Below, one piece after another: positions 3,188 through 54,707 of a stretch of DNA of 64,000 bases. The notes beneath the pieces are model-generated. The model saw only the letters and a list, made by a program, of their open reading frames with translations, did not search any database and had not been told where the DNA came from. The stretch spans positions 224,001 to 288,000 of the forward strand of contig CAVSHT010000011.1 in NCBI GenBank assembly GCA_963727895.1, in the 5' to 3' direction. The position numbers and the translations under genes are program-made. Source of the stretch: an uncultured Methanosarcinaceae archaeon (lineage in GTDB: Archaea > Halobacteriota > Methanosarcinia > Methanosarcinales > Methanosarcinaceae). The first letter of the stretch is position 1. Each line of letters begins with the position of its first letter.

Positions 3188-4610
3188 ATGATAGTGATAA
3201 AAGAAATAAAAGATACCAATGAAGTGAGATTGCAGTTTGTAAATATTGGTTTTAAATATGGATTGGCCACATCAAACCCAAATAATAAAAGTGTTATTTT
3301 TAAACCATATGATAGAATAATTGAAAGAGGAAAAGAAACAGGATACATTTCATATTTATTTTTAAACACTCATACAGAAAGCTCAACTTTCTATGAAAAT
3401 GAAGTTAATAATGTTGATAATATTTTACATTCTGAAGAATTTCTGTCTAAAATCTCTGCAGAATATATAAAAACTCTTGGTTGCATTTGCTATACCAAAG
3501 GTAAGCAAATATTGTTTTATCCAGCATATACTTCAAACTTTTTTAAAGTTTTCACAGATAGAGATAAACCTTTAAAGCACGAAAAAAACATATGGCATTG
3601 GTACTCAAAAATAGATATATATGCTTATAACATATATTTCTTCATGAACTGCCCCAGATGCAATAGTTCCAGTCACAATAAGAATGGTATAGTTGGCGGG
3701 CGTCAACGGTACAAATGCTCTGATTGTGGATATAACTATACAGTAGAGCTAAAATCAACTGCTTTTTCCGCCTCTGTCAAAAAACAGGCTTTACAACTCT
3801 ATCTTGAAGGATTGGGCTTTCGTTCAATAGGAAAATTTTTAGGGGTGAGTCATGTTTCTGTCCAAAGATGGATCAAGAAATTTGGTCAGGAGTTAGAGAA
3901 CCTAAAAAGTGAAAATGAGATATCTATTGTTGAAATGGATGAGATGCACACTTACATCGGTAACAACAAAAATATTGCTGGATCTGGATTGCTGTTGATA
4001 GAGTTGGGAAAAAGTTCATCAACTGCTCTTTTGGCAGCAGAGGAACGGAAACTGGAAAACTACTCTGGGAAAAATTGAAGAAAAAAGAGATTGGAGAAGT
4101 GATGACAGATCACTGGAGGGCATATGCAGAGTTTATTCCAGAAAAGATCCATACTCAATCCAAAGCAGAAACGTATACTGTTGAAGGATATAACAGCATA
4201 TTGAGGCACTTTTTGGCAAGGTTGAGAAGAAAGACAAAGTGTTATACGAAGAGTCTTGAAATGCTAAAGTACTAGGTTATTCTATTGATGAAATAAAGAA
4301 AGAAAGAACTAGATATAGTTAAGTAACAATACCAAAATATTTAATTACTGCACCAATTATTGATAATAGTAGTAATAAAGATTCATTTTATCACTTTGAA
4401 TTTTACGTCCAAGTTGATTCATCTATTTCATCAAAAAAACCAGGTATAATTGCCCTGCCTAATCAAGAAAATCTTCAAATACCAATATCTGGAAAAATAA
4501 TGTATACTGATTATGAAATAGATATTCCTAATTGTAAAGGGAAGTTGATAATAGTTGCAACAAAAGTAGCTGGAATACTTAAAGACGAGACTCTTATTAG
4601 ATTCTCTTAA
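3188..4610 (+). pseudogene. Hypothetical gene interrupted by IS1
   Basis: N-terminal 135 aa run in frame into IS1 InsA (ORF 3188-4078); an open frame KYLITAPIID...ETLIRFS* resumes after the IS end, with stop at 4608-4610. Confidence 0.55.
3594..4333 (+). mobile_element. IS1-family element (insA/insB), degenerate
   Basis: Ends GGCATTGGTACT... and ...AGTAACAATACC; CPRC/CSDC zinc ribbon, VEMDE, TDHW; premature stops. Confidence 0.9.
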
Positions 4611-5014: not shown

Positions 5015-5047
5015 AATGCACGGGTTTTATTGTAAAACCTGTGAATT
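5015..5047. repeat. REP-like palindrome, copy 2, abutting the IS110 insertion site
   Basis: AATGCACGGGTTTT-ATTGT-AAAACCTGTGAATT. Confidence 0.7.
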
Positions 5048-5139
5048 TCCCTAAAACGCACATGCTTTTCTTCGAATAACAAGCACAACTAATGAAAGTA
5101 CTCTCCGTTCTTTTTTTTGACTATTAAGCCCTCATTACC

Positions 5140-5273
5140 TTGGGCAGTAAGGTTGTCTCGATTTTGGTTTTTCAAAACCGTCCTAAAACTAATCAGTGAA
5201 TTGCCATCGAAGGCTCAAGTGTGACTTTGATCACGGATGCTAAATTGGCCTTTTAGGCAATTCCACTGCCCAA
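5140..5273 (+). ncRNA. Putative IS110 bridge/seek RNA (left-end non-coding region)
   Basis: Closing stem TTGGGCAGT/ACTGCCCAA, nested stems, segments matching target and donor; identical in copy 2 (42047-42180). Confidence 0.65.
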
Positions 5274-5292
5274 ATAAATTTGGCGATCTAAT

Positions 5293-6557
5293 TTGATTTA
5301 AGTCATAAACAAAGCTTGTGGTTTAGACATTCACAAACTCTTTTTCATTGCTACAATTCTCAGTATATCTGGTGAAAAACAACAGCAACGTTTCAACAGA
5401 GATGATGAAGGAATTTTAGCCCTTAAAAATTGGGTAATATCAGAAAAATGTGATGTTGTTGCATGTGAATCAACCAGCGAATTTTAGGTTCCGATTCATG
5501 ATTCATTGGTAAAGCATCTAACTGTGATAGTTGGAAATGCGCGAGATATGAAGGTATTTACCCATACAAAAACAGATAAGATTGACTCAGAAGTCATTGC
5601 ACAACTTGCACTTAATAATATGATTCAGCCATCAAGAGTTTTTCCAAAGGATCATAGATATTTTAGATCATATGTTCTACTTCGGTTAACACTTGTACAA
5701 AAAAGAACAGATTTAAAAAATAAAGCTCACTCAATTCTTGCATCTGAAATTCAATTTTTGCATCTGAAATGCTACACCTGAATAATGTGCTGACAGACGT
5801 TTTTGGCAAGAATGACAGAATGATCTTATTAGGAATCTCTTCAGGTAAGAGTGTTGATCAGATTATTGCAAGCCTCTCTCCAAATGTTCGGAAAAAAGCT
5901 GCTCAGATAAGAGAAATTCTTGATCGAGAAATTTCTCAAAGTGCTGCATTTAGACTTCAGATCTGTCTGAAACTCATAAAAAGTCTTGATGATGAACTCG
6001 AAGCTTTAGAAACAGAAATTTTCAATTATGCTTCTCGAAATCATAAGCGAGAAATGGAGATTTTAATGTCAGTTCCAGGTATAGGGGAACTTGGTGCGGC
6101 AATTTTACTTGCTGAAATAGGCAACTTTAAGGATTTTTCTTCTGGAAATAAGCTTGCTTCTTGGCTTGGTCTAGTTCCTAATGTGTATCAATCTGCAGAT
6201 AAATACTATAACGGCAGAATCACAAAGAGGGGATCAAAAGTAGCAAGGTGGATTCTGACACAGATTGCTCAAGCAGCAGCAAGAAAGAAGAATAGCAGGT
6301 TAAAAGAGTTTTTTAACAGAAAAAAGAAGTTGATTGGACATGCAAAAGCAATTATTGCCTTAGCAAGGAAAATTGCAACGATAATATGGCATCTTATTAC
6401 AAATGATGAGATGGACGAAGATGAAACCGGATATCAAAAGGGAGAAATCCAAAAGAGAAAGATTATTGAAACTGAGATTTTTTCGGTTGATGAACGGATT
6501 AAAATAATTAGTGAAATATTTGCGATTATGGGGAAAAAGGATCAGGAGAGCACGTGA
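5293..6557 (+). pseudogene. IS110 recombinase, inactivated
   Basis: TAA at codon 3 (5299), TAG at 5485, frameshift from a 20-bp duplication at 5731-5770. Confidence 0.9.
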
Positions 6558-6588
6558 GGATAATCTCCTCATGTACTTTCATGCTAAA

Positions 6589-6830
6589 TCGTCCTATTGA
6601 GCGAAAGCCCAATCCTTCAAGATAGAGTTGTAAAGCCTGTCTTTTTACAGAGGCGGAAAAAGCAGTTGATTTTAGCTCTACTGTATAGTTATATCCACAA
6701 TCAGAGCATTTGTACCGTTGACGCCCGCCAACTATACCATTCTTTTTGTGATTAGAACTATTGCATCTGGGGCAGTTCATGCAGAAATATATGTTATAAG
6801 CATATATATCTATTTTTGATTACCAATGCT
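6589..6830 (-). mobile_element. 5' half of an IS1 cut by IS110
   Basis: InsA MNCPRC...LGFRSIGRF ends exactly at the IS110 right end; IS1 left end (A)GCATTGGTAATC at 6830. Confidence 0.9.
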
Positions 6831-6875
6831 AAAATAATTTGTAATTATCATTGCATTTTATAATTTTGCTTTAAC

Positions 6876-21713: not shown

Positions 21714-22000
21714 ACTCGTACTCTTGAAAATACTGTGAAATTTTAAGTTTTAAGGTTAGGACTGCAAATCTCTAAAACAGTGTCAGAGTTTTCAGTTCCA
21801 TAATTTTATTATTGCGTCACTGTTGAGTCTTTTGGTGGTTAGACAAATTTCTCGAAATTCTGTTATGAAAAAGGTTCAAATGAAAATTGCAACTCTGAAA
21901 TCTAAAGAATTACTTTGGGTTTTGAATTAGCTTATTTTTTAATACACAATTTGAAACTCATGAACTTTAGTCAAAATTAGTCAAAAAATCAGAATAAATA

Positions 22001-22134
22001 AAGGATAGAAAGCAATAAGGATAGAAAGCAATAAGGATAGAAAGCAATAAGGATAGAAAGCAATAAGGATAGAAAGCAATAAGGATAGAAAGCAATAAGG
22101 ATAGAAAGCAATAAGGATAGAAAGCAATAAGGAT
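22001..22134. repeat. Perfect 16-bp tandem repeat AAGGATAGAAAGCAAT, 8 copies plus a partial
   Basis: Direct reading. Confidence 0.97.
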
Positions 22135-22201
22135 GAACGCAATTTTGGATTCTGAAACTCGAAAATAAAGTGGATTACCAGGATTAACTCTTTATTAAGT
22201 T

Positions 22202-25277: not shown

Positions 25278-25327
25278 GTTAAATACACCTCAAAAATGAA
25301 ATCTTGATTTTATATTATACGCTTTTA

Positions 25328-26067
25328 GGCATTGATACTTAAACATAGTTATATACTATTAGAAAATATATTTCTTCATGAACTGCCCCAGATGCAATAG
25401 TTCCAGTCACAAAAAGAACGGTATAGTTGGTGGGCGTCAACGCTACAAATGCCATGATTGTGGATATAACTATATAGTAGAGCTAAAATCAACTGCTTTT
25501 TCCGCCTCTGTTAAAAAACAGGCTTTACAACTTTATCTTGAAGGATTGGGCTTTCGTTCAATAGGAAGAGTTTTAGGGGTGAGTCATGTTTCTGTCCAAA
25601 GATGGATCAAGAAATTTGGTCAGGAGTTAGAGAACCTAAAAAGTGAAAATGAGATATCTATTGTTGAAATGGATGAGATGCACACTTACATCGGTAACAA
25701 CAAAAATATTGCTGGATCTGGATTGCTGTTGATAGAGTTGGGAAAAAGTTCATCAACTGCTCTTTTGGTAGCAGAGGAACGGAAACTGGAAAACTACTCT
25801 AGGAATAAATGAAGAAAAAAGAGATTGGAGAAGTGATGACCGATCACTGGAGGGCATATGCAGAGTTTATTCCAGAAAAGATCCATACTCAATCAAAAGC
25901 AGAAACGTATACTGTTGAAGGATATAACAGCATATTGAGGCACTTTCTGGCAAGATTGAGAAGAAAGACAAAGTGTTATACGAAGAGTCTTGAAATGCTA
26001 AAGTACTCGGTTATTCTATTGATGAAATAAAGAAATAAAGAACTAGATATATTTAGTTAACAATACC
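25328..26067 (+). mobile_element. IS1-family element
   Basis: Ends GGCATTGATACT... and ...TTAACAATACC; 8-bp target duplication CGCTTTTA/CGTTTTTA; internal stops. Confidence 0.92.
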
Positions 26068-26225: not shown

Positions 26226-28442
26226 ATGGATACTGAAGTTAAATCCATTGGAGTTCAGGAGTTTGTTCGCAGATTTAAAGATCTAATAGAAAACAAAAAT
26301 GCAAAGCTCTGCTTCTTTTTGGGTGCAGGATGCTCGGTATCCTCAGGTATTCCAACTGCAGCAACCCTTGTAGAGAATTTATGGCTTCCAAAGCTCAAAG
26401 AATTAAAAACAAAAAATCAAGAAGACTTTAACAAGTGGTTCAAAATAAGATTTCCAGAATACGACAAAAACAATGCAGCCCAATTCTATAGAGACATAAT
26501 GGAAGAACTATTTCTAACTCCAAAACAGAGGCAGCAGGAAATCGAAAGGCTGGTTGCAAAAAAAGATCCTGGATTCGGGTATGCTATTTTAGCTCAGTTA
26601 CTGGCAGAAAAATGTGGAGAACACTGCAATATAATCCTCACCACAAACTTTGATGATATGGTTGCAGATGCTCTTTATCTTTATACAAACAAAAAACCCA
26701 TCGTCATCTTCCATGAGTCTCTAGCTGGGTTTGTAAAAATTAGTGGTACACGCCCTATGGTAATAAAACTTTATGTAGATTCAAAACTGTCTCCTATGAA
26801 TACAAAAAAAGAAACTAAGGAATTAAATGATAAAGTTAAGAAAGTAATTAAAAACTTGCTTTCTGAAGCTGGCTTGATTTTCATCGGATACGGTGGTAAT
26901 GATAATAGTATAACTGAGATTCTTAAAAAAGTTCCAGAAGACGAAGGCTCTTTTCAATGGGGAATCTATTGGATAGGACAAAGTATACCAAATAACGATA
27001 TGGGAGCGTTTCTAAAAAACAGAAATGCAGTATGGGTAAATCATAGGGATTTTGATGAACTGATGCTTCTCATAAAGGAAGAATTTGGACTTAAATCTCC
27101 ATCAAACGATAGATTTGAAAAATTGTTTAAAGTGTATTTTGATACACTTCAAAATTTGAATGAAAAAATTAATTTAAAGCCAGACTCTGGGGAGAAGAAA
27201 ATTCTTGAAAATGCCGTTGAGAAAACATCAAAAGAATTTAAATCCTGGCGGTCAATAGAGTTAGAAGCATCAAAATATCAGAAGGCAGATCTTAAAAAGG
27301 CGGACCAGATTTGCCAAAAAGGTATAAGTCAATTTCCAAATAGTCATGAACTTATTAAAAACTATGCAATTTTCTTGCATAATATTCGTAAGGACTATGA
27401 TAAAGCAGGAAAGCTGTTCAAGAAAGCTCTCTAAATTGAACCAGAGAATACTAGAAATCTTGGAAACTATGCGGTTTTTCTAAAGAATATTCATAAGGAC
27501 TACGATAAAGCAGAAGAGCTGTTCAAGAAAGCTCTTGAAATTGAACCAGATAATGCTAATAACCTTGGAAGCTATGCGATTTTTTTGAATGACATTCGTA
27601 AGGACCACGATAAAGCAGAAAATTTTTACAAGAAAGCTCTCAAAATTGAGCCCGAGCACGCAAATAACCTTGAAAACTATGCGTATTTCTTGGAAGACAT
27701 TCGTAAGGACCACGATAAAGCAGAAGATTTTTACAAGAAAGCTCTCTAAATTGAACCAGATAATGCTGACAACCTTGGAAACTATGCAATTTTTCTGAAT
27801 GATATTCGTAAGGACTACGATAAAGCAGAAGAGTTTTACACGAAAGCTCTCAAAATTGAACCCGCGAATGCTAATAACCTTGAAAACTATGCGTATTTCT
27901 TGGAAGACATTCGTAAGGACTACGATAGAGCAGAAGATTTTTACAAGAAAGCTCTAAAGATTGAACCAAAGAATGCTAAATACCTTGGAATCTATGCAAA
28001 TTTTCTGAAGAATATTCGTAAAGACTACGATAAAGCGGAAGTGTTTTACAAGAAAGTTCTCGATATTGAACCCGAGAATGCTAGATACCTTGGAAACTAT
28101 CCAGGATTTCTGCTATCTATGGGAAAGGAAGAAGATGGATTTAGTCTATTAAAAAAGGTACTTTTTTCAACTGATAAACAAAATTTATTACTAGAATGCT
28201 GGTTCTATTGTTATGCCCATACAAAAGATAAAAAATCTAGAAATCAGAGCCTCTGTAAAATAAAAGATTTGATCAAATCTGGAGTCAGATCTCCGTATTG
28301 GAATCTAGAAGAAAATATGAAAACCGCCGTAGAAAGTGGTCATCCCGAATCAGAGTTCTTAGAAAAGCTTTCAAAAGTTATATCTGATGAAGTAAATGCA
28401 AAAGAACTGGATGATTTTGATGTCTGGTTGCAGTGTTCCTAA
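26226..28442 (+). pseudogene. SIR2-like domain fused to about 7 TPR repeats; two in-frame TAA stops
   Basis: FFLGAGCS, ILTTNFDD, FIGYGG; 105-nt repeats; ORFs 26226 and 27900 share a frame; TAA at 27432 and 27747. Confidence 0.85.
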
Positions 28443-28817: not shown

Positions 28818-29171
28818 TTATGAATTATTACTTGAGTTTTCTGCTGGAGGCATGGTGCCATTACCTGACATGTTGCCTGGAGCTCCTCCAGGAGGCATGG
28901 TAGAGTTGTTAGACATGTTGCCTGGAGCTCCTCCAGGAGGCATGGTAGAGTTGTTAGACATGTTGCCTGGAGCTCCTCCAGGAGGCATGGTAGAGTTGTT
29001 AGACATGTTACCTGGAGCTCCTCCAGGAGGCATGGTAGCGTTACTGGACACATTGCTTGCGTTATCTGCTGAAGAAGTAGTAGTGTCGGATGTTTTACTG
29101 CTAGTACATCCTGACATTGCTACTACTGACATAAGCAGCAAGCCAATTACTAAAAAGCTTATTTTTTTCAT
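28818..29171 (-). CDS. Small secreted lipoprotein with 15-aa repeats
   Basis: MKK + hydrophobic stretch + SGC lipobox; 45-bp repeat encoding NMSNNSTMPPGGAPG, about 4 copies. Confidence 0.75.
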   Translation of the reverse strand: MKKISFLVIGLLLMSVVAMSGCTSSKTSDTTTSSADNASNVSSNATMPPGGAPGNMSNNSTMPPGGAPGNMSNNSTMPPGGAPGNMSNNSTMPPGGAPGNMSGNGTMPPAENSSNNS

Positions 29172-40121: not shown

Positions 40122-40762
40122 CGCAACAATTGAATAAAAACGAAATTCGTATATAGTCTTTCGTAATATGTAAAACTGATTTTTATAAGTAGGTATTGAG
40201 GAGGGAGTAATTCCCCCCTCTTTGTGCACTAACACAATCCGTTTTTTAAGCACATTGAGTAAAGTATTCGCATATCTCGTTTTTTAGTACTATAAAAGTT
40301 TTACTCAATCGTTTGAGTTAGACGTTTGTTTTTAAAGCTAGTGTCATATGACTTAGCTTTAGTGACTGATCTATTGTATCATAGTATATATACTTATTTA
40401 TATTTGTTATTTTTTATGTTAATACTTTTTATATTTGATTACTGCGCTAGTTTTTGCCTGATTCATGGGTAATTTGATCTGGATCGCTTGGACAGTCGCA
40501 ATTAAAAAAGGATTATCTGTGTAAAGTCAGAAAACAGTAAGTCGCTTAGAGAAATATCAGTATTTTTCTCAGGTTTATGTACCTGAACTGAGAAATAGTA
40601 ACAAATATTAAAATGTTCGTATTTGATATAGAATATCTAAAAATTGAGAGAAAAATAAGTGATTTTTCTTTTAAAATACGAACATTATAGGTCAAAACGT
40701 TCGTGTATCAAAGTGCCCCGTAAAATTAGATTTTAGCATGAAAGTACATGAGGAGATTATCC

Positions 40763-42027
40763 TCACGTGCTCTCCTGATCCTTTTTCCCCATAATCGCAA
40801 ATATTTCACTAATTATTTTAATCCGTTCATCAACCGAAAAAATCTCAGTTTCAATAATCTTTCTCTTTTGGATTTCTCCCTTTTGATATCCGGTTTCATC
40901 TTCGTCCATCTCATCATTTGTAATAAGATGCCATAGTATCGTTGCAATTTTCCTTGCTAAGGCAATAATTGCTTTTGCATGTCCAATCGACTTCTTTTTT
41001 CTGTTAAAAAACTCTTTTAACCTGCTATTCTTCTTTCTTGCTGCTGCTTGAGCAATCTGTGTCAGAATCCACCTTGCTACTTTTGATCCCCTCTTTGTGA
41101 TTCTGCCGTTATAGTATTTATCTGCAGATTGATACACATTAGGAACTAGACCAAGCCAAGAAGCAAGCTTATTTCCAGAAGAAAAATCCTTAAAGTTGCC
41201 TATTTCAGCAAGTAAAATTGCCGCACCAAGTTCCCCTATACTTGGAACTGACATTAAAATCTCCATTTCTCGCTTATGATTTCGAGAAGCATAATTAAAA
41301 ATTTCTGTTTCTAAAGCTTCGAGTTCATCATCAAGACTTTTTATGAGTATCAGACAGATCTGAAGTCTAAATGCAGCACTTTGAGAAATTTCTCGATCAA
41401 GAATTTCTCTTATCTGAGCAGCTTTTTTCCGAACATTTGGAGAGAGGCTTGCAATAATCTGATCAACACTCTTACCTGAAGAGATTCCTAATAAGATCAT
41501 TCTGCCATTCTTGCCAAAAACGTCTGTCAGCACATTATTCAGGTGTAGCATTTCAGATGCAAAAATTGAATTTCAGATGCAAGAATTGAGTGAGCTTTAT
41601 TTTTTAAATCTGTTCTTTTTTGTACAAGTGTTAACCGAAGTAGAACATATGATCTAAAATCTATATGATCCTTTGGAAAAACTCTTGATGGCTGAATCAT
41701 ATTATTAAGTGCAAGTTGTGCAATGACTTCTGAGTCAATCTTATATGTTTTTGTATGGGTAAATACCTTCATATCTCGCGCATTTCCAACTATCACAGTT
41801 AGATGCTTTACCAATGAATCATGAATCGGAACCCAAAAGTCGCTGGTTGATTCACATGCAACAACATCACATTTTTCTGATATTACCCAATTTTTAAGGG
41901 CTAAAATTCCTTCATCATCTCTGTTGAAGCGTTGCTGTTGTTTTTCACCAGATCTACTGAAAATTGTAGCAATGAAAAAGAGTTTGTGAATGTCTAAACC
42001 ACAAGCTTTGTTTATGACTTCAATCAA
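40763..42027 (-). pseudogene. IS110 recombinase, inactivated
   Basis: Same 20-bp duplication frameshift (41550-41589); KTD changed to KTY at a DEDD aspartate. Confidence 0.9.
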
Positions 42028-42046
42028 ATTAGATCACCAAATTTAT

Positions 42047-42180
42047 TTGGGCAGTGGAATTGCCTAAAAGGCCAATTTAGCATCCGTGATCAAAGTCACA
42101 CTTGAGCCTTCGATGGCAATTCACTGATTAGTTTTAGGACGGTTTTGAAAAACCAAAATCGAGACAACCTTACTGCCCAA
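42047..42180 (-). ncRNA. Putative IS110 bridge/seek RNA, copy 2
   Basis: Reverse complement of 5140-5273; no differences seen. Confidence 0.65.
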
Positions 42181-42268
42181 GGTAATGAGGGCTTAATAGT
42201 CAAAAAAAGAACGGAGAGTACTTTCATTAGTTGTGCTTGTTATTCAAAGAATATCATGTGCGTTTTAG

Positions 42269-42593
42269 GGGTAAGTCACGTTTCTGTCCAAAGATGGATA
42301 AAGAAATTTGGTCAGGAGTTAGAGGACCTAAAAATTGAAGAAAAAAGATATTGGAGAAGTGATGACAGATCACTAGAGAGCATATGCAGAGTTTCTTCCA
42401 GAAAAGAGTCATACTCAATCAAAAGCAGAAACATTTACAGTTGAGGGATATAACAGCATATTGAGGTATTTTCTGGCAAGGTTGAGAAGAAAGACAAAGT
42501 GTTATACAAAAAGTCTTGAAATGCTAAAGTACTCGGTTATTCTATTGATGAAATACAGAAATAAAGAACTAGATATAGTTAAGTAACAATGCC
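42269..42593 (+). mobile_element. 3' half of the IS1 cut by IS110, with an internal deletion
   Basis: Resumes (L)GVSHVSVQRWIKKFGQ exactly at the IS110 end; right end ...GTAACAATGCC at 42593. Confidence 0.9.
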
Positions 42594-52130: not shown

Positions 52131-52959
52131 CCTCGAACTTTTTGATCTCAACTATACTCTTGACTGCGGACAGGTTTTTCGCTGGGTACGAGCTGGAGAA
52201 TGGTGGACAGGCGTTGTTAGAGATCAGGTTATCCGGCTTTCGCAGGATCACAGACAATTGATTGTCGATTCAAAGCTTCAGCCCGAGTTTTTTAGTCGTT
52301 ATTTTCGCTTGGATGATAACTTACTTTCAGTCTATAAAAGCATAAACAAGGATCTGCTGATCGACAGGGCAATTCACAAATATAGTGGCATGCGGCTGAT
52401 CCGACAGGATCCATGGGAATGTCTGATCTCCTATATGCTCGCAACAGCCTCAAGTATTCCCACAATCCAGAAACGAATCTATCTTCTAAGCCAGTATTTT
52501 GGTCAAGAACTTGAACCAGGATATTTCAGCTTTCCTGATCCAGAAACTCTTGCAAATGCAAGTACTTACGAACTTGAAAAATGCAAGCTGGGTTTTAGGG
52601 CTCAGAACATAAGAGCCGCAGCTGAAGACGTAGCTTCAGGTGAGCTGGACCTTGACGTTCTTTTCCGCCTTGAGTACAAGTATTCGCGAGAACGCCTTAT
52701 GAGGCTTCGCGGCATAGGGGAAAAGGTTGCCGACTGCGTACTCCTTTTCGCTTTTGGGAAAATGGAATCTTTTCCCGTAGATACCCATATAAAACAGATC
52801 ATCCAGCATTACCACATAGATGACAGTTACTTTGAAACATGCAAAAACATGAGCTGTATGGGAGACTGGGGAAAAGAATATTTCGGACAGTACTGCGGGT
52901 ATGCCCAGGAGTATCTTTATTATCAGAAACGGATGGAAGGGTTTGTAAGTCTTTATTGA
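52117..52959 (+). CDS. 8-oxoguanine DNA glycosylase (HhH-GPD, Ogg1-like)
   Basis: TLDCGQVFRW, QDPWECL, RGIGEKVADC, FPVDTH. Confidence 0.88.
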   Translation: MYKLNLELFDLNYTLDCGQVFRWVRAGEWWTGVVRDQVIRLSQDHRQLIVDSKLQPEFFSRYFRLDDNLLSVYKSINKDLLIDRAIHKYSGMRLIRQDPWECLISYMLATASSIPTIQKRIYLLSQYFGQELEPGYFSFPDPETLANASTYELEKCKLGFRAQNIRAAAEDVASGELDLDVLFRLEYKYSRERLMRLRGIGEKVADCVLLFAFGKMESFPVDTHIKQIIQHYHIDDSYFETCKNMSCMGDWGKEYFGQYCGYAQEYLYYQKRMEGFVSLY

Positions 52960-53040
52960 ACTGGAATATGATTTTTTTATACTGTAATTCTATGCCATAG
53001 GTAAGATTAAAAAGAAATAGGACTTACGCACTTGAAGTAC

Positions 53041-54029
53041 GAAAAAATGATTTTATTGACGTTAAGTTTTCTCTTGTCACTTTCCAACAGTATTCTGTTG
53101 GGTTCCTATCTGGAGTAGCTGGAGGGAAAAATATTATTTTCAACCAATGCTTATTATTTTGATAAAATTCCTTTGCCTTTGCTGATCTATGCCATGTAGC
53201 TCTGTCCAGTAAAAGAAATATCCTTGCCCCTATATCTCTTTGAAACTTGATTAATGATTTTAAGTAAGAGTCTGTATTCTGTGTAATTCCTAAATCATAC
53301 CAATAAAACTCTCCATTTTCAGTGTACAATCCTCCAATATTGATTTTTGCTTTTGAACCACTTGTAAATTTAATAGGTTTTGAGCCCTTTATTGCCCAAC
53401 ATCTTGATCTATTTGAATCCACACAAAAATTACTTTCATCATGGGTAACGAATAAATGATTAGGGTTTAGTAATCTGTTTTTTGGACTTCTCTTATGAAT
53501 TATTTTTTAAGCACCTCATTTCTTCTTTTAGATTGAGGTCGACATGTGATTTTTCTCAACCCTAAATTTTTTAAAATTTGTCTCATTCTTGATTTGGAAT
53601 AAGATACTCCAAATTTTTCCTTGACAAATTGAACTGCATCTTTTGTTTGCCAACCACGAGAATAAACATCATCTGTTGGTATAGGTTCTAAAAATGCCTC
53701 TCTTAACTCAGATAATTGTTCTGCAATTAAAAAAGACTTGATTCCTCGACCAGGTTTACATTTAAGGCTAAACAAACCGTCGGTTTCAGCTCGTTTTATC
53801 CAGCGATGAACAGTTGAACGGTGAACTGAAAAATCGTCGGCAGCTTTAGCAGGACTCAAACCATTTTTGACCAATAATAAGGCTTGAAGTTTAATCTGCT
53901 CGTTTTTGTTACAGGAATTTATGATAGCTGTAGAAATATCAAAAGTTGTAAATGTTTCCAAACTCATATATAAAATTATATACTAATTTCAGGTATAAGA
54001 ATGTTGCAGTAAATACAGAGGTGACTATA
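53041..54029 (-). mobile_element. IS630-family remnant (premature stop, 3'-truncated)
   Basis: HTH ORF 53500-53967, then THDES, LLDRATWH, PDRNPTEYCW; outer end TATAGTCACC abuts IS1 sequence. Confidence 0.85.
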
Positions 54030-54707
54030 TGTCCAGTCACAATGTCCAGTCACAAAAAAATGATATAGTTGGTGGGCGTCAACGCTATAAATGCCATGAT
54101 TGTGGATATAACTACACAGTAGAGCTAAAATCAACTGCTTTTTCCACTTCTGTAAAAAGACAGGCTTTACAACTCTATCTTGAAGGATTGGGCTTTCGCT
54201 CAATAGGACGATTTTAGGGGTGAGTCATGTTTCTGTCCAAAGATGGATAAAGAAATTTGGTCAAGAGTTAGAGGCTCTAAAAAGTGAAAATGAAATATCT
54301 ATTGTTGAAATGGATGAGATGCATACTTACATTGGTAACAAAAAAATATTGCTGGATCTGGATTGCTGTTGATAGAGTTGGGAAAAAGTTCATCAACTGC
54401 TCTTTTGGTAGCAGAGGAACGGAACCTGGAAAACTACTCTGGGAAAAATGGAAGAAAAAAGAGATTGGAGAAGTGATGACAGATCACTGGAGAGCATATG
54501 CAGAGTTTCTTCCTGAAAAGAGTCATACTCAATCAAAAGCAGAAACATTTACAGTTGAGGGATATAACAGCATATTGAGGCACTTTCTAGCGAGATTGAG
54601 AAGAAAGACAAAGTGTTATACGAAGAGTATTGAAATGCTAAAGTACTCGGTTCTTCTATTGATGAAATACAAAAATAAAGAACTGGATATATTTAGTTAA
54701 CAATGCC
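54029..54707 (+). mobile_element. IS1-family element lacking its left end
   Basis: insA/insB homology; right end ...TTAACAATGCC; retains the A7 run at the insA/insB overlap. Confidence 0.9.

Follow-up and report, generated by a model that had tools for sequence, protein, structure and literature searches.

The locus examined here raises the question of whether the noncoding left end of an archaeal insertion sequence encodes an RNA that guides its recombinase and, if so, which DNA the loops of that RNA read and in which order. The IS110 family is known to be RNA-guided; to our knowledge, no guides other than bridge RNAs and seekRNAs specify both of the DNAs that recombine, and every example tested is bacterial. 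The window, by which we mean the whole 64,000-nt stretch analyzed, comes from an uncultured Methanosarcinaceae archaeon (GenBank assembly GCA_963727895.1, contig CAVSHT010000011.1, positions 224,001 to 288,000), and an earlier note made from its letters had proposed an IS110-family bridge RNA with target and donor loops. That proposal holds up well: the element carries the IS110 Pfam domains and passes the family model NF033542, the fold of its left end is conserved among relatives, three guide segments covary with DNA outside the RNA, and the insertion geometry is defined. Thus, the left end very probably encodes a bridge RNA of ~130–140 nt on the transposase strand, in which an outer helix, P1, closes two guide loops.

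The Element and Its Transposase

The element and its surroundings comprise the following features (window positions).

5050..5056, + strand: CCTAAAA, made up of the left target and the core, directly before the left end and with the letters of guide J2
5057..6588, + strand: IS110-family element (ISMac14 group), copy 1, CGCACATG to CATGCTAAA, 1532 nt
5057..5300, + strand: noncoding left end, 244 nt
5301..6557, + strand: transposase pseudogene, with TAA at codon 3, an in-frame TAG, and a frame-shifting 20-nt duplication
6580..6588, + strand: right end CATGCTAAA, left donor plus core
6589..6834, − strand: part of the IS1-family element that served as insertion target, with right target TCGTCC...
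40732..42262, − strand: element copy 2, with its putative bridge RNA core at 42043-42184

The boundaries of copy 1 derive from an alignment of the two window copies, the 23 genome copies, and empty paralogous sites, and they fall where the earlier note had placed the junctions, from CGCACATG to CATGCTAAA and straight after CCTAAAA. The two window copies of this 1.53-kb element are 99% alike; the genome holds ~23 copies, and the covariance model of the RNA described below matches 24 places there. The first ~80 nt of the left end consist of the right-donor arm (CGCAC+ATG) and a conserved leader, and the right noncoding end reaches 31 nt past the stop codon. At the start of the left end, Methanospirillum-type elements (L032, L036, L031) have a hairpin, CATGAGGC..GCCTCATG, part of which is the right-donor arm; a weaker version, TGCTT..AAGCA, is present at 5057-5090 of the window.

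The best copy of the transposase in the genome (L001:226-1398, 390 aa) contains PF01548 (DEDD_Tnp_IS110) and PF02371 (Transposase_20), with E values of 2.5e-17 and 3.6e-26, and scores 261 bits against the NCBIfam model NF033542, "IS110 family RNA-guided transposase," which has a cut-off of 140. The transposase shares 81% identity with a protein annotated by NCBI as IS110-like element ISMac14 family transposase. Its C-terminal domain aligns to the structures of IS621 and ISCro4 (E values of 3.6e-9 and 6.6e-8), and in a significant alignment the Ser of ...VYQS... corresponds to the Ser of ...YES... in IS621, while the N-terminal alignment that places the D/E residues is nonsignificant.

Both window copies are pseudogenes that carry stops and a frameshift, codon 3 of copy 1 being a TAA. 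With their transposase genes disrupted in this way, they are relics. Nearly all of the ~23 genome copies have a damaged transposase ORF, the best being 390 aa vs. 414–416 aa in relatives. The 20-nt duplication (window 5729-5768) is common to ~15 of the 23 copies, as judged by length, and is lacking in the relatives found in RNA-library contigs. Since ~15 of 23 copies share a duplication that breaks the frame, the dead variant has multiplied, whether by mobilization in trans, as a passenger of its IS1 host, or through recombination. As a side observation, close relatives lie on short contigs of bins labeled Oricola, Deltaproteobacteria, and Cloacimonadota (L009, L030, L031, L037), for which misbinning is a likelier explanation than transfer.

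Insertion Geometry and the IS1-Family Target

The segment from CGCACATG to CATGCTAAA is inserted straight after CCTAAAA, in one orientation and with no target duplication. A site-pattern search of the genome found 238 IS1-type sites, 16 occupied and 222 empty, and comparison of the two sets shows that an occupied site equals an empty site plus the inserted segment. When the A's at both junctions are counted against the empty sites, the donor junction reads CATGCT-AAA-CGCAC and the target CCTA-AAA-(A)TCG, and the in-register overlap of target and donor is the AAA core only. The 6 bp (CTAAAA) that target and donor had been thought to share thus shrink to AAA once the two are aligned at the crossover point, the six shared bases arising from a one-base shift. 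The donor is 11 bp long and is framed by a short CAT...ATG sub-terminal inverted repeat.

In this genome the CCTAAAA insertion site lies mostly within an IS1-family element that has a zinc-finger, InsA-like N terminus and two overlapping frames and that is present in ~238 copies in the 3.67-Mb assembly; pieces of it occupy 3188-4275, 6589-6834, 25324-26001, 42228-42527, and 53970-54641 of the window. The IS110 target falls inside the helix-turn-helix coding part of that element (...GKFLGVSH...). One insertion sequence, of the IS110 family, thus parasitizes another, of the IS1 family, that is there in ~238 copies. A start of ATC or TC after the core is found in 13 of the 16 occupied IS1-type sites vs. 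63 of the 222 empty ones; the rare variant that best fits both guides (TCGT/TCAT) is occupied six times and empty once, and the commonest variant (CTCTT) is occupied three times and empty 135 times.

A Conserved RNA Fold Upstream of the Transposase

The consensus fold of the left end comprises six helices arranged as two loops within an outer stem, and the guide segments discussed below are placed with respect to them.

5141..5272, + strand: putative bridge RNA core, closed by P1 (5141-5147/5266-5272)
5151..5194, + strand: target-binding loop, made of P2, an internal loop, and the distal hairpin P3
5151-5155/5190-5194, + strand: P2
5156..5165, + strand: J1, target-loop 5′ guide TCTCGATTTT, which complements the top strand of the core and right target together, AAAATCGAGA
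5166-5171/5174-5179, + strand: P3, the GGTTTT/AAAACC hairpin
5182..5189, + strand: J2, target-loop 3′ guide, CCTAAAA (5182-5188) plus C, reproducing the top strand across left target and core
5198..5263, + strand: donor-binding loop, made of P4, P5, and the hairpin P6
5198-5205/5256-5263, + strand: P4
5209-5213/5249-5253, + strand: P5
5220-5224/5231-5235, + strand: P6, a hairpin
5237..5244, + strand: donor-loop 3′ guide ATGCTAAA, same letters as the element's right end

In copy 1, P1 extends to 9 bp (TTGGGCAGT at 5140-5148 and ACTGCCCAA at 5265-5273). The coordinates from which the analysis started all proved exact: besides this closing stem and the GGTTTT/AAAACC hairpin, they are CGATTTT at 5159-5165, TCCTAAAA at 5181-5188, GTGTGACTTT at 5219-5228, and ATGCTAAA at 5237-5244. 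Helix P2 had been missed at first reading; with it, the first loop takes on the stem–guide–hairpin–guide–stem form of the IS621 modules. The 134-nt region (5140-5273) folds with −41.4 kcal/mol (z = −3.13), and 1 of 200 shuffles was as stable; the fold of the whole 254-nt left end is unremarkable (z = −1.36, with 22 of 200 shuffles as stable).

Comparison with relatives supplied the decisive evidence. Relatives of the transposase in one-genome-per-species collections yielded 54 loci, and separately there were matches in 40 of the 151 genomes of the order. In the alignment, the stretch upstream of the gene retains ~80% nucleotide identity at a protein identity of 54%, and it consists of a fixed scaffold with short variable windows. 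RNAalifold applied to 16 sequences gave the six helices, with 33 pairs, and a covariance model built from that fold recovers the RNA upstream of transposases down to ~36–45% protein identity, including 40 further places upstream of transposases (E up to 1, 47 sources searched); on copy 1 it matches 5136-5277 with 161.6 bits. The earlier note had suggested that such a fold and model across homologous ends would bear on its proposal. They do so in its favor: double-sided changes occur in 30 of the 33 pairs of the consensus fold, including all 7 pairs of P1, and this was matched by none of 500 shuffles. Over 38 distinct rows, 95.1% of the cells are paired, vs. 76.2% after shuffling and 33–44% with the partners slid, in an alignment that was fitted to the covariance model and so favors structure. 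Conserved G:U pairs, among them one U:G invariant in 35 of 35 rows, fit the transposase strand only, which fixes the strand of the RNA as that of the transposase.

Conservation within the genome was also considered as a sign of constraint and was rejected. Among 21 genome copies, differences per site were 0.025 in the RNA region and 0.016 in the ORF, so that the former varies no less. The 134-nt region is indeed identical in both window copies, as had been pointed out, but the identity is uninformative as an argument for constraint: with 14 differences in 1250 nt of ORF, ~1.5 would be expected by chance in 134 nt, and zero is about what chance gives. Rfam had no match at gathering score over the window and none at E up to 10 over 5040-5320, and the covariance model (R1) found nothing above noise on a bacterial relative of 33% identity (L105). 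A run of T's at 5108-5116 precedes P1 by ~23 nt and is absent in the Methanospirillum group.

Guide Segments of the Target-Binding Loop

Four guides had been proposed in the two loops. Three of them, at 5156-5165, 5182-5188, and 5237-5244, covary with the DNA they would read; the fourth, at 5219-5228, does not. For the two in the target-binding loop, the covariation is with the flanks of the insertion site, as the earlier note had thought worth examining, and in each case none of 5000 permutations equaled the observed agreement, a figure that overstates the significance, since related elements are not independent. Nonetheless, the matching pairs come from clades with quite different guides. 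Some of the loci in the guide comparison are chimeric or decayed.

In 20 elements, J1 gave a mean of 7.4 matches of 10–11 to the element's own right flank, vs. 5.56 to the flanks of other elements; the individual matches are imperfect, at 6–9 of 10–11. The exact 7-mer of J2 is found in the element's own 75-nt upstream window in 19 of 36 elements, 17 having no exact match, vs. 36 of 1214 cross pairs. With the conserved N5+ATG at the beginning of the left end as an anchor, 18 of 35 elements match exactly, 10 have one mismatch, and 7 fit worse. Being identical to the top strand, J2 pairs with the bottom strand. In nearly all elements the left end begins with C, the base that also follows J2, both being almost invariant. 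This C occupies the position of the handshake bases of IS621, which is suggestive only. Two bases after the donor guide match the right flank, by eye, in L032 (TC) and L030 (TA) but not in L006, L008, L061, or L079.

One genome (G140) holds two subfamilies side by side. Ten copies with guides GATAAAA / AAAATAAGTA sit at sites of the [AG]ATAAAA-TAAG type and have the right end ATGCTAAA, and six copies with guides AGAAAAA / AAATAAAAGA sit at sites of the [AG]GAAAAA-TA type and have the right end ATGCCAAA. The left side discriminates between the subfamilies, with 6.1 vs. 4.8 and 6.5 vs. 4.25 matches of 7, and the right side gives hardly any discrimination.

The Donor-Binding Loop

On its 3′ side the donor-binding loop carries a segment with the letters of the element's right end. 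The exact 8-mer of this donor guide is present at the element's own right end in 20 of 29 cases vs. 20 of 706 cross pairs (permutation, 0 of 5000), and across clades guide and right end vary in step, as ATGCTAAA, ATGCCAAA, ATGTTAAA, ATGGAAAA, and ATAGAAAA, with the further variants ATGGGAAA, ATAGGAAG, ATACGAAG, and ATACCAGG.

For the other half of the donor, GTGTGACTTT (5219-5228) had been put forward on the strength of a partial match to the donor arm. This candidate was dropped: the segment is the 5′ strand and loop of P6, whose strands change together (UGUGA/UCACG, UGCGA/UCGCG, UGCGG/CCGCG, UGUAC/GUACG), and it does not covary with the start of the left end. A scan of all alignment columns against the core plus left-end start, for complementarity and for identity, yielded no right-donor guide; the best 6-mer was 0.68 complementary vs. 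0.92 for the positive control, and the 4-mers scored by permutation were low, with observed fractions of 0.25–0.71. Likewise, the two subfamilies of G140 differ at the start of the left end (CGCAT vs. CACAC), yet the 5′ side of their donor loop is the same. Donor recognition is thus only half explained, as no segment pairing with the right donor arm was found.

These results bear on a rival model, in which the first loop alone works, in the manner of a seekRNA of 70–100 nt, and the second is a structural or processing module, the ends of the element being read by the protein. The missing right-donor guide is what such a model would lead one to expect, as is the right-donor arm itself, N5+ATG, which is fairly conserved, is mirrored by CAT on the other side, and is flanked by a short CAT/ATG inverted repeat; moreover, a short seekRNA form is described as sufficient for movement in the text of one report (PMC11187229). 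We nevertheless consider the model unlikely, given that from clade to clade an 8-nt segment of the second loop varies in concert with the right end.

Guide Order and Polarity

The guides lie in the reverse of the order in IS621 and ISEc21 and in the same order as in IS1111-type seekRNAs, since the guide for the top strand (J1) is 5′, that for the bottom strand (J2) is 3′, and in the donor loop it is the 3′ side that carries the right-end copy. As the text of the published accounts describes them, ISEc21 and IS621 have the bottom-strand guide 5′ and the top-strand guide 3′ (PMC11208160, PMC11208158, PMC11187229), and in the RNAs of the IS1111 family the top-strand match is 5′ of the bottom-strand match (PMC11187229). 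An orientation opposite to that of IS621 had been noticed at the outset, and the placement of J1, J2, and the donor guide bears it out.

Could this be a bridge RNA of ordinary IS621 polarity, the reversal stemming from misassigned orientation, boundaries, or loop sides? The target is A/T-rich and contains a run of A's, which leaves the register ambiguous by 1–2 nt, and the guide order of the published systems is taken from text descriptions. Orientation, however, is fixed by the reading frame of the transposase and by the G:U pairs; J2, 3′ of P3, equals the left flank in 18 of 35 anchored cases, J1, 5′ of P3, is complementary to the right flank, and the donor loop is arranged alike, with the right-end copy on its 3′ side. 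A shift of 1–2 nt is unable to swap the sides of a loop, and we regard ordinary polarity as very improbable. Slightly less probable still is that the region is a cis-acting leader of the transposase mRNA, controlling translation or stability, with incidental matches to the flanks: the start codon does follow it directly, no long T run intervening, and one RNA-library contig spans it into the ORF, but a leader function would leave the covariation of three loop segments with DNA beyond the transcript unexplained, and the family is known to be RNA-guided.

Evidence on expression is indirect and consists of relatives of the left end in contigs from RNA libraries. The 24 RNA runs contained only 0.06–0.11 of the sampled words, and in four of the four libraries examined, contigs at least 88% alike cover parts of the element, although contigs of this kind establish neither transcription nor a start, end, strand, or level. 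They represent relatives and include one of 179 nt over 5132-5287 (X15) and one of 1415 nt over 5132-6020 (X11).

Returning to a bridge RNA of IS1111-like order, its action may be sketched by analogy with the family. The RNA would be made, bind the recombinase, and direct recombination. In the target loop, J1 would read core plus right target on the top strand and J2 left target plus core on the bottom strand; in the donor loop, the guide at 5237-5244 would serve as the left-donor guide; the putative DEDD/Ser recombinase would exchange strands at the AAA core, and the element would be inserted right after CCTAAAA, in one orientation and without duplication. In structural terms, the swapped guide order would amount to the DNA being turned round in the complex.

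Relation to Known Systems

Compared with the text descriptions of IS621 (PMC11208160, PMC11208158), the archaeal element has much in common with that system: its left end encodes the RNA, on the strand of a probable DEDD/Ser recombinase whose gene lies downstream; a target loop is followed by a donor loop, each with the order stem–guide–hairpin–guide–stem; both strands would be read by the guides, which share a short core; insertion is without duplication; and a short sub-terminal inverted repeat flanks the donor. On the same descriptions, it differs in several respects. The 5′ guide here corresponds to the top strand on the right side and the 3′ guide to the bottom strand on the left side; one outer helix closes both loops, whereas IS621 has tandem modules after a 5′ stem-loop; the core is AAA rather than CT; and no right-donor guide was found in the present element. 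The protein, of ~415 aa, aligns significantly to that of IS621 in its C-terminal domain only.

The resemblance to the IS1111 seekRNAs of ISEc11, ISKpn4, ISPa11, and ISPst6, as the text of PMC11187229 presents them, is in the guide order, with the top-strand complement 5′ of the bottom-strand one, and in the preference for repeated sequences as targets. In contrast, the RNA is upstream of the transposase here and downstream of it there, the repeat is CAT/ATG rather than a sub-terminal inverted repeat of 11–13 bp, and the protein has 414–416 aa in relatives of the present element as opposed to 330–350 aa. The layout is accordingly IS110-like, with a long left end, 31 nt past the stop, a CAT/ATG repeat only, and a protein of 414–416 aa in relatives. 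ISEc21, in the same account, shares the upstream noncoding region and the lack of a long sub-terminal repeat, but its top-strand match is 3′ of the bottom-strand match, opposite to the arrangement here.

ISMac14, ISMba7, ISMba20, and ISMma5 are IS110-family elements of Methanosarcina in ISfinder, of which the present element is a different, decayed member. They form one cluster in a recombinase table (PMC11208160) and in an identity matrix (PMC11187229), and in the latter ISMac14 is ~23% identical to IS621 and ISPst6 and at most ~28–29% identical to any other element. Archaeal recombinases of the family are numerous, with 662 in one survey (10.1101/2024.06.21.599552); bridge RNAs are stated to have been predicted in 85.7% of ISfinder IS110s; and a 2026 preprint gives 32,190 candidates under 86 models (bioRxiv 10.64898/2026.10.21.760802). 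Searches of the literature returned no text on the RNA, guides, or polarity of ISMac14, ISMba7, ISMba20, or ISMma5 and none pairing "bridge RNA" with "Methanosarcina"; for bridge RNA with archaea and IS1111, among the matches listed, no title or opening of an abstract is about a bridge RNA of archaea. Nor did the text of these sources mention an RNA encoded upstream whose guides follow the IS1111-like order, although one may exist in supplements or figures.

Evolutionary and Practical Implications

Judged by its sequence, the RNA appears to be a genuine bridge RNA that belongs to a known family and has its guides in a distinct arrangement. The combination of an IS110 layout with an IS1111 guide order is relevant to the evolutionary derivation of one layout from the other and to whether guide order dictates the strand that is exchanged first. 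A more far-reaching proposal is that the ISMac14 group and its archaeal relatives, in Methanosarcina, Methanospirillum, Methanoculleus, and Methanoperedens, make up a third architectural class of IS110-family RNA-guided recombinases, in which the RNA is upstream as in the IS110 types and the DNA is turned round as in the IS1111 types. If this is true, then exchange would start with the strand that is antisense to the genes, and recognition of the right donor arm would fall to protein or DNA structure and not to RNA. The group would then be an evolutionary link between the IS1111 and IS110 layouts, with the polarity of IS1111 and a recombination site shifted from the interval between RNA and gene to a place upstream of the RNA. 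Taken jointly, with all of these parts, the proposal is tentative, and we would expect it to fail somewhat sooner than to hold in full. Independently of it, the element offers a comparatively well-resolved archaeal example, with scaffold, three guides, core, and natural targets readable from the letters, and intact relatives in cultivable methanogens could serve as a native tool for genome insertion in Methanosarcina.

Flanks of the Copies and Other Features of the Window

The two window copies are in inverted orientation, and their flanks are swapped, copy 1 having a non-IS1 left flank and an IS1-type right flank and copy 2 the reverse. When the flanks are re-paired, they give one ordinary IS1-type site and one TTTCCCTAAAA+ATCTAA site that fits both guides. 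The swapped and re-pairable flanks suggest that the ~35.6-kb segment between the copies was inverted via recombination between them. Chimeric flanks are also seen at several other genome copies. A diverged subfamily, on contig C4 of G000 (~52540-54050 and 93267-94172), has its own J2, TACTAAAA, which matches the flank ATACTAAAA, and a donor guide, ATGTCAAA, that misfits its own right end, ATGCTAAA; it looks like a recombinant between subfamilies. The window further contains tandem repeat arrays at 21969-22160, 27231-28160, and 28841-29065, with units of 16 nt, 105 nt (at least seven copies), and 45 nt.
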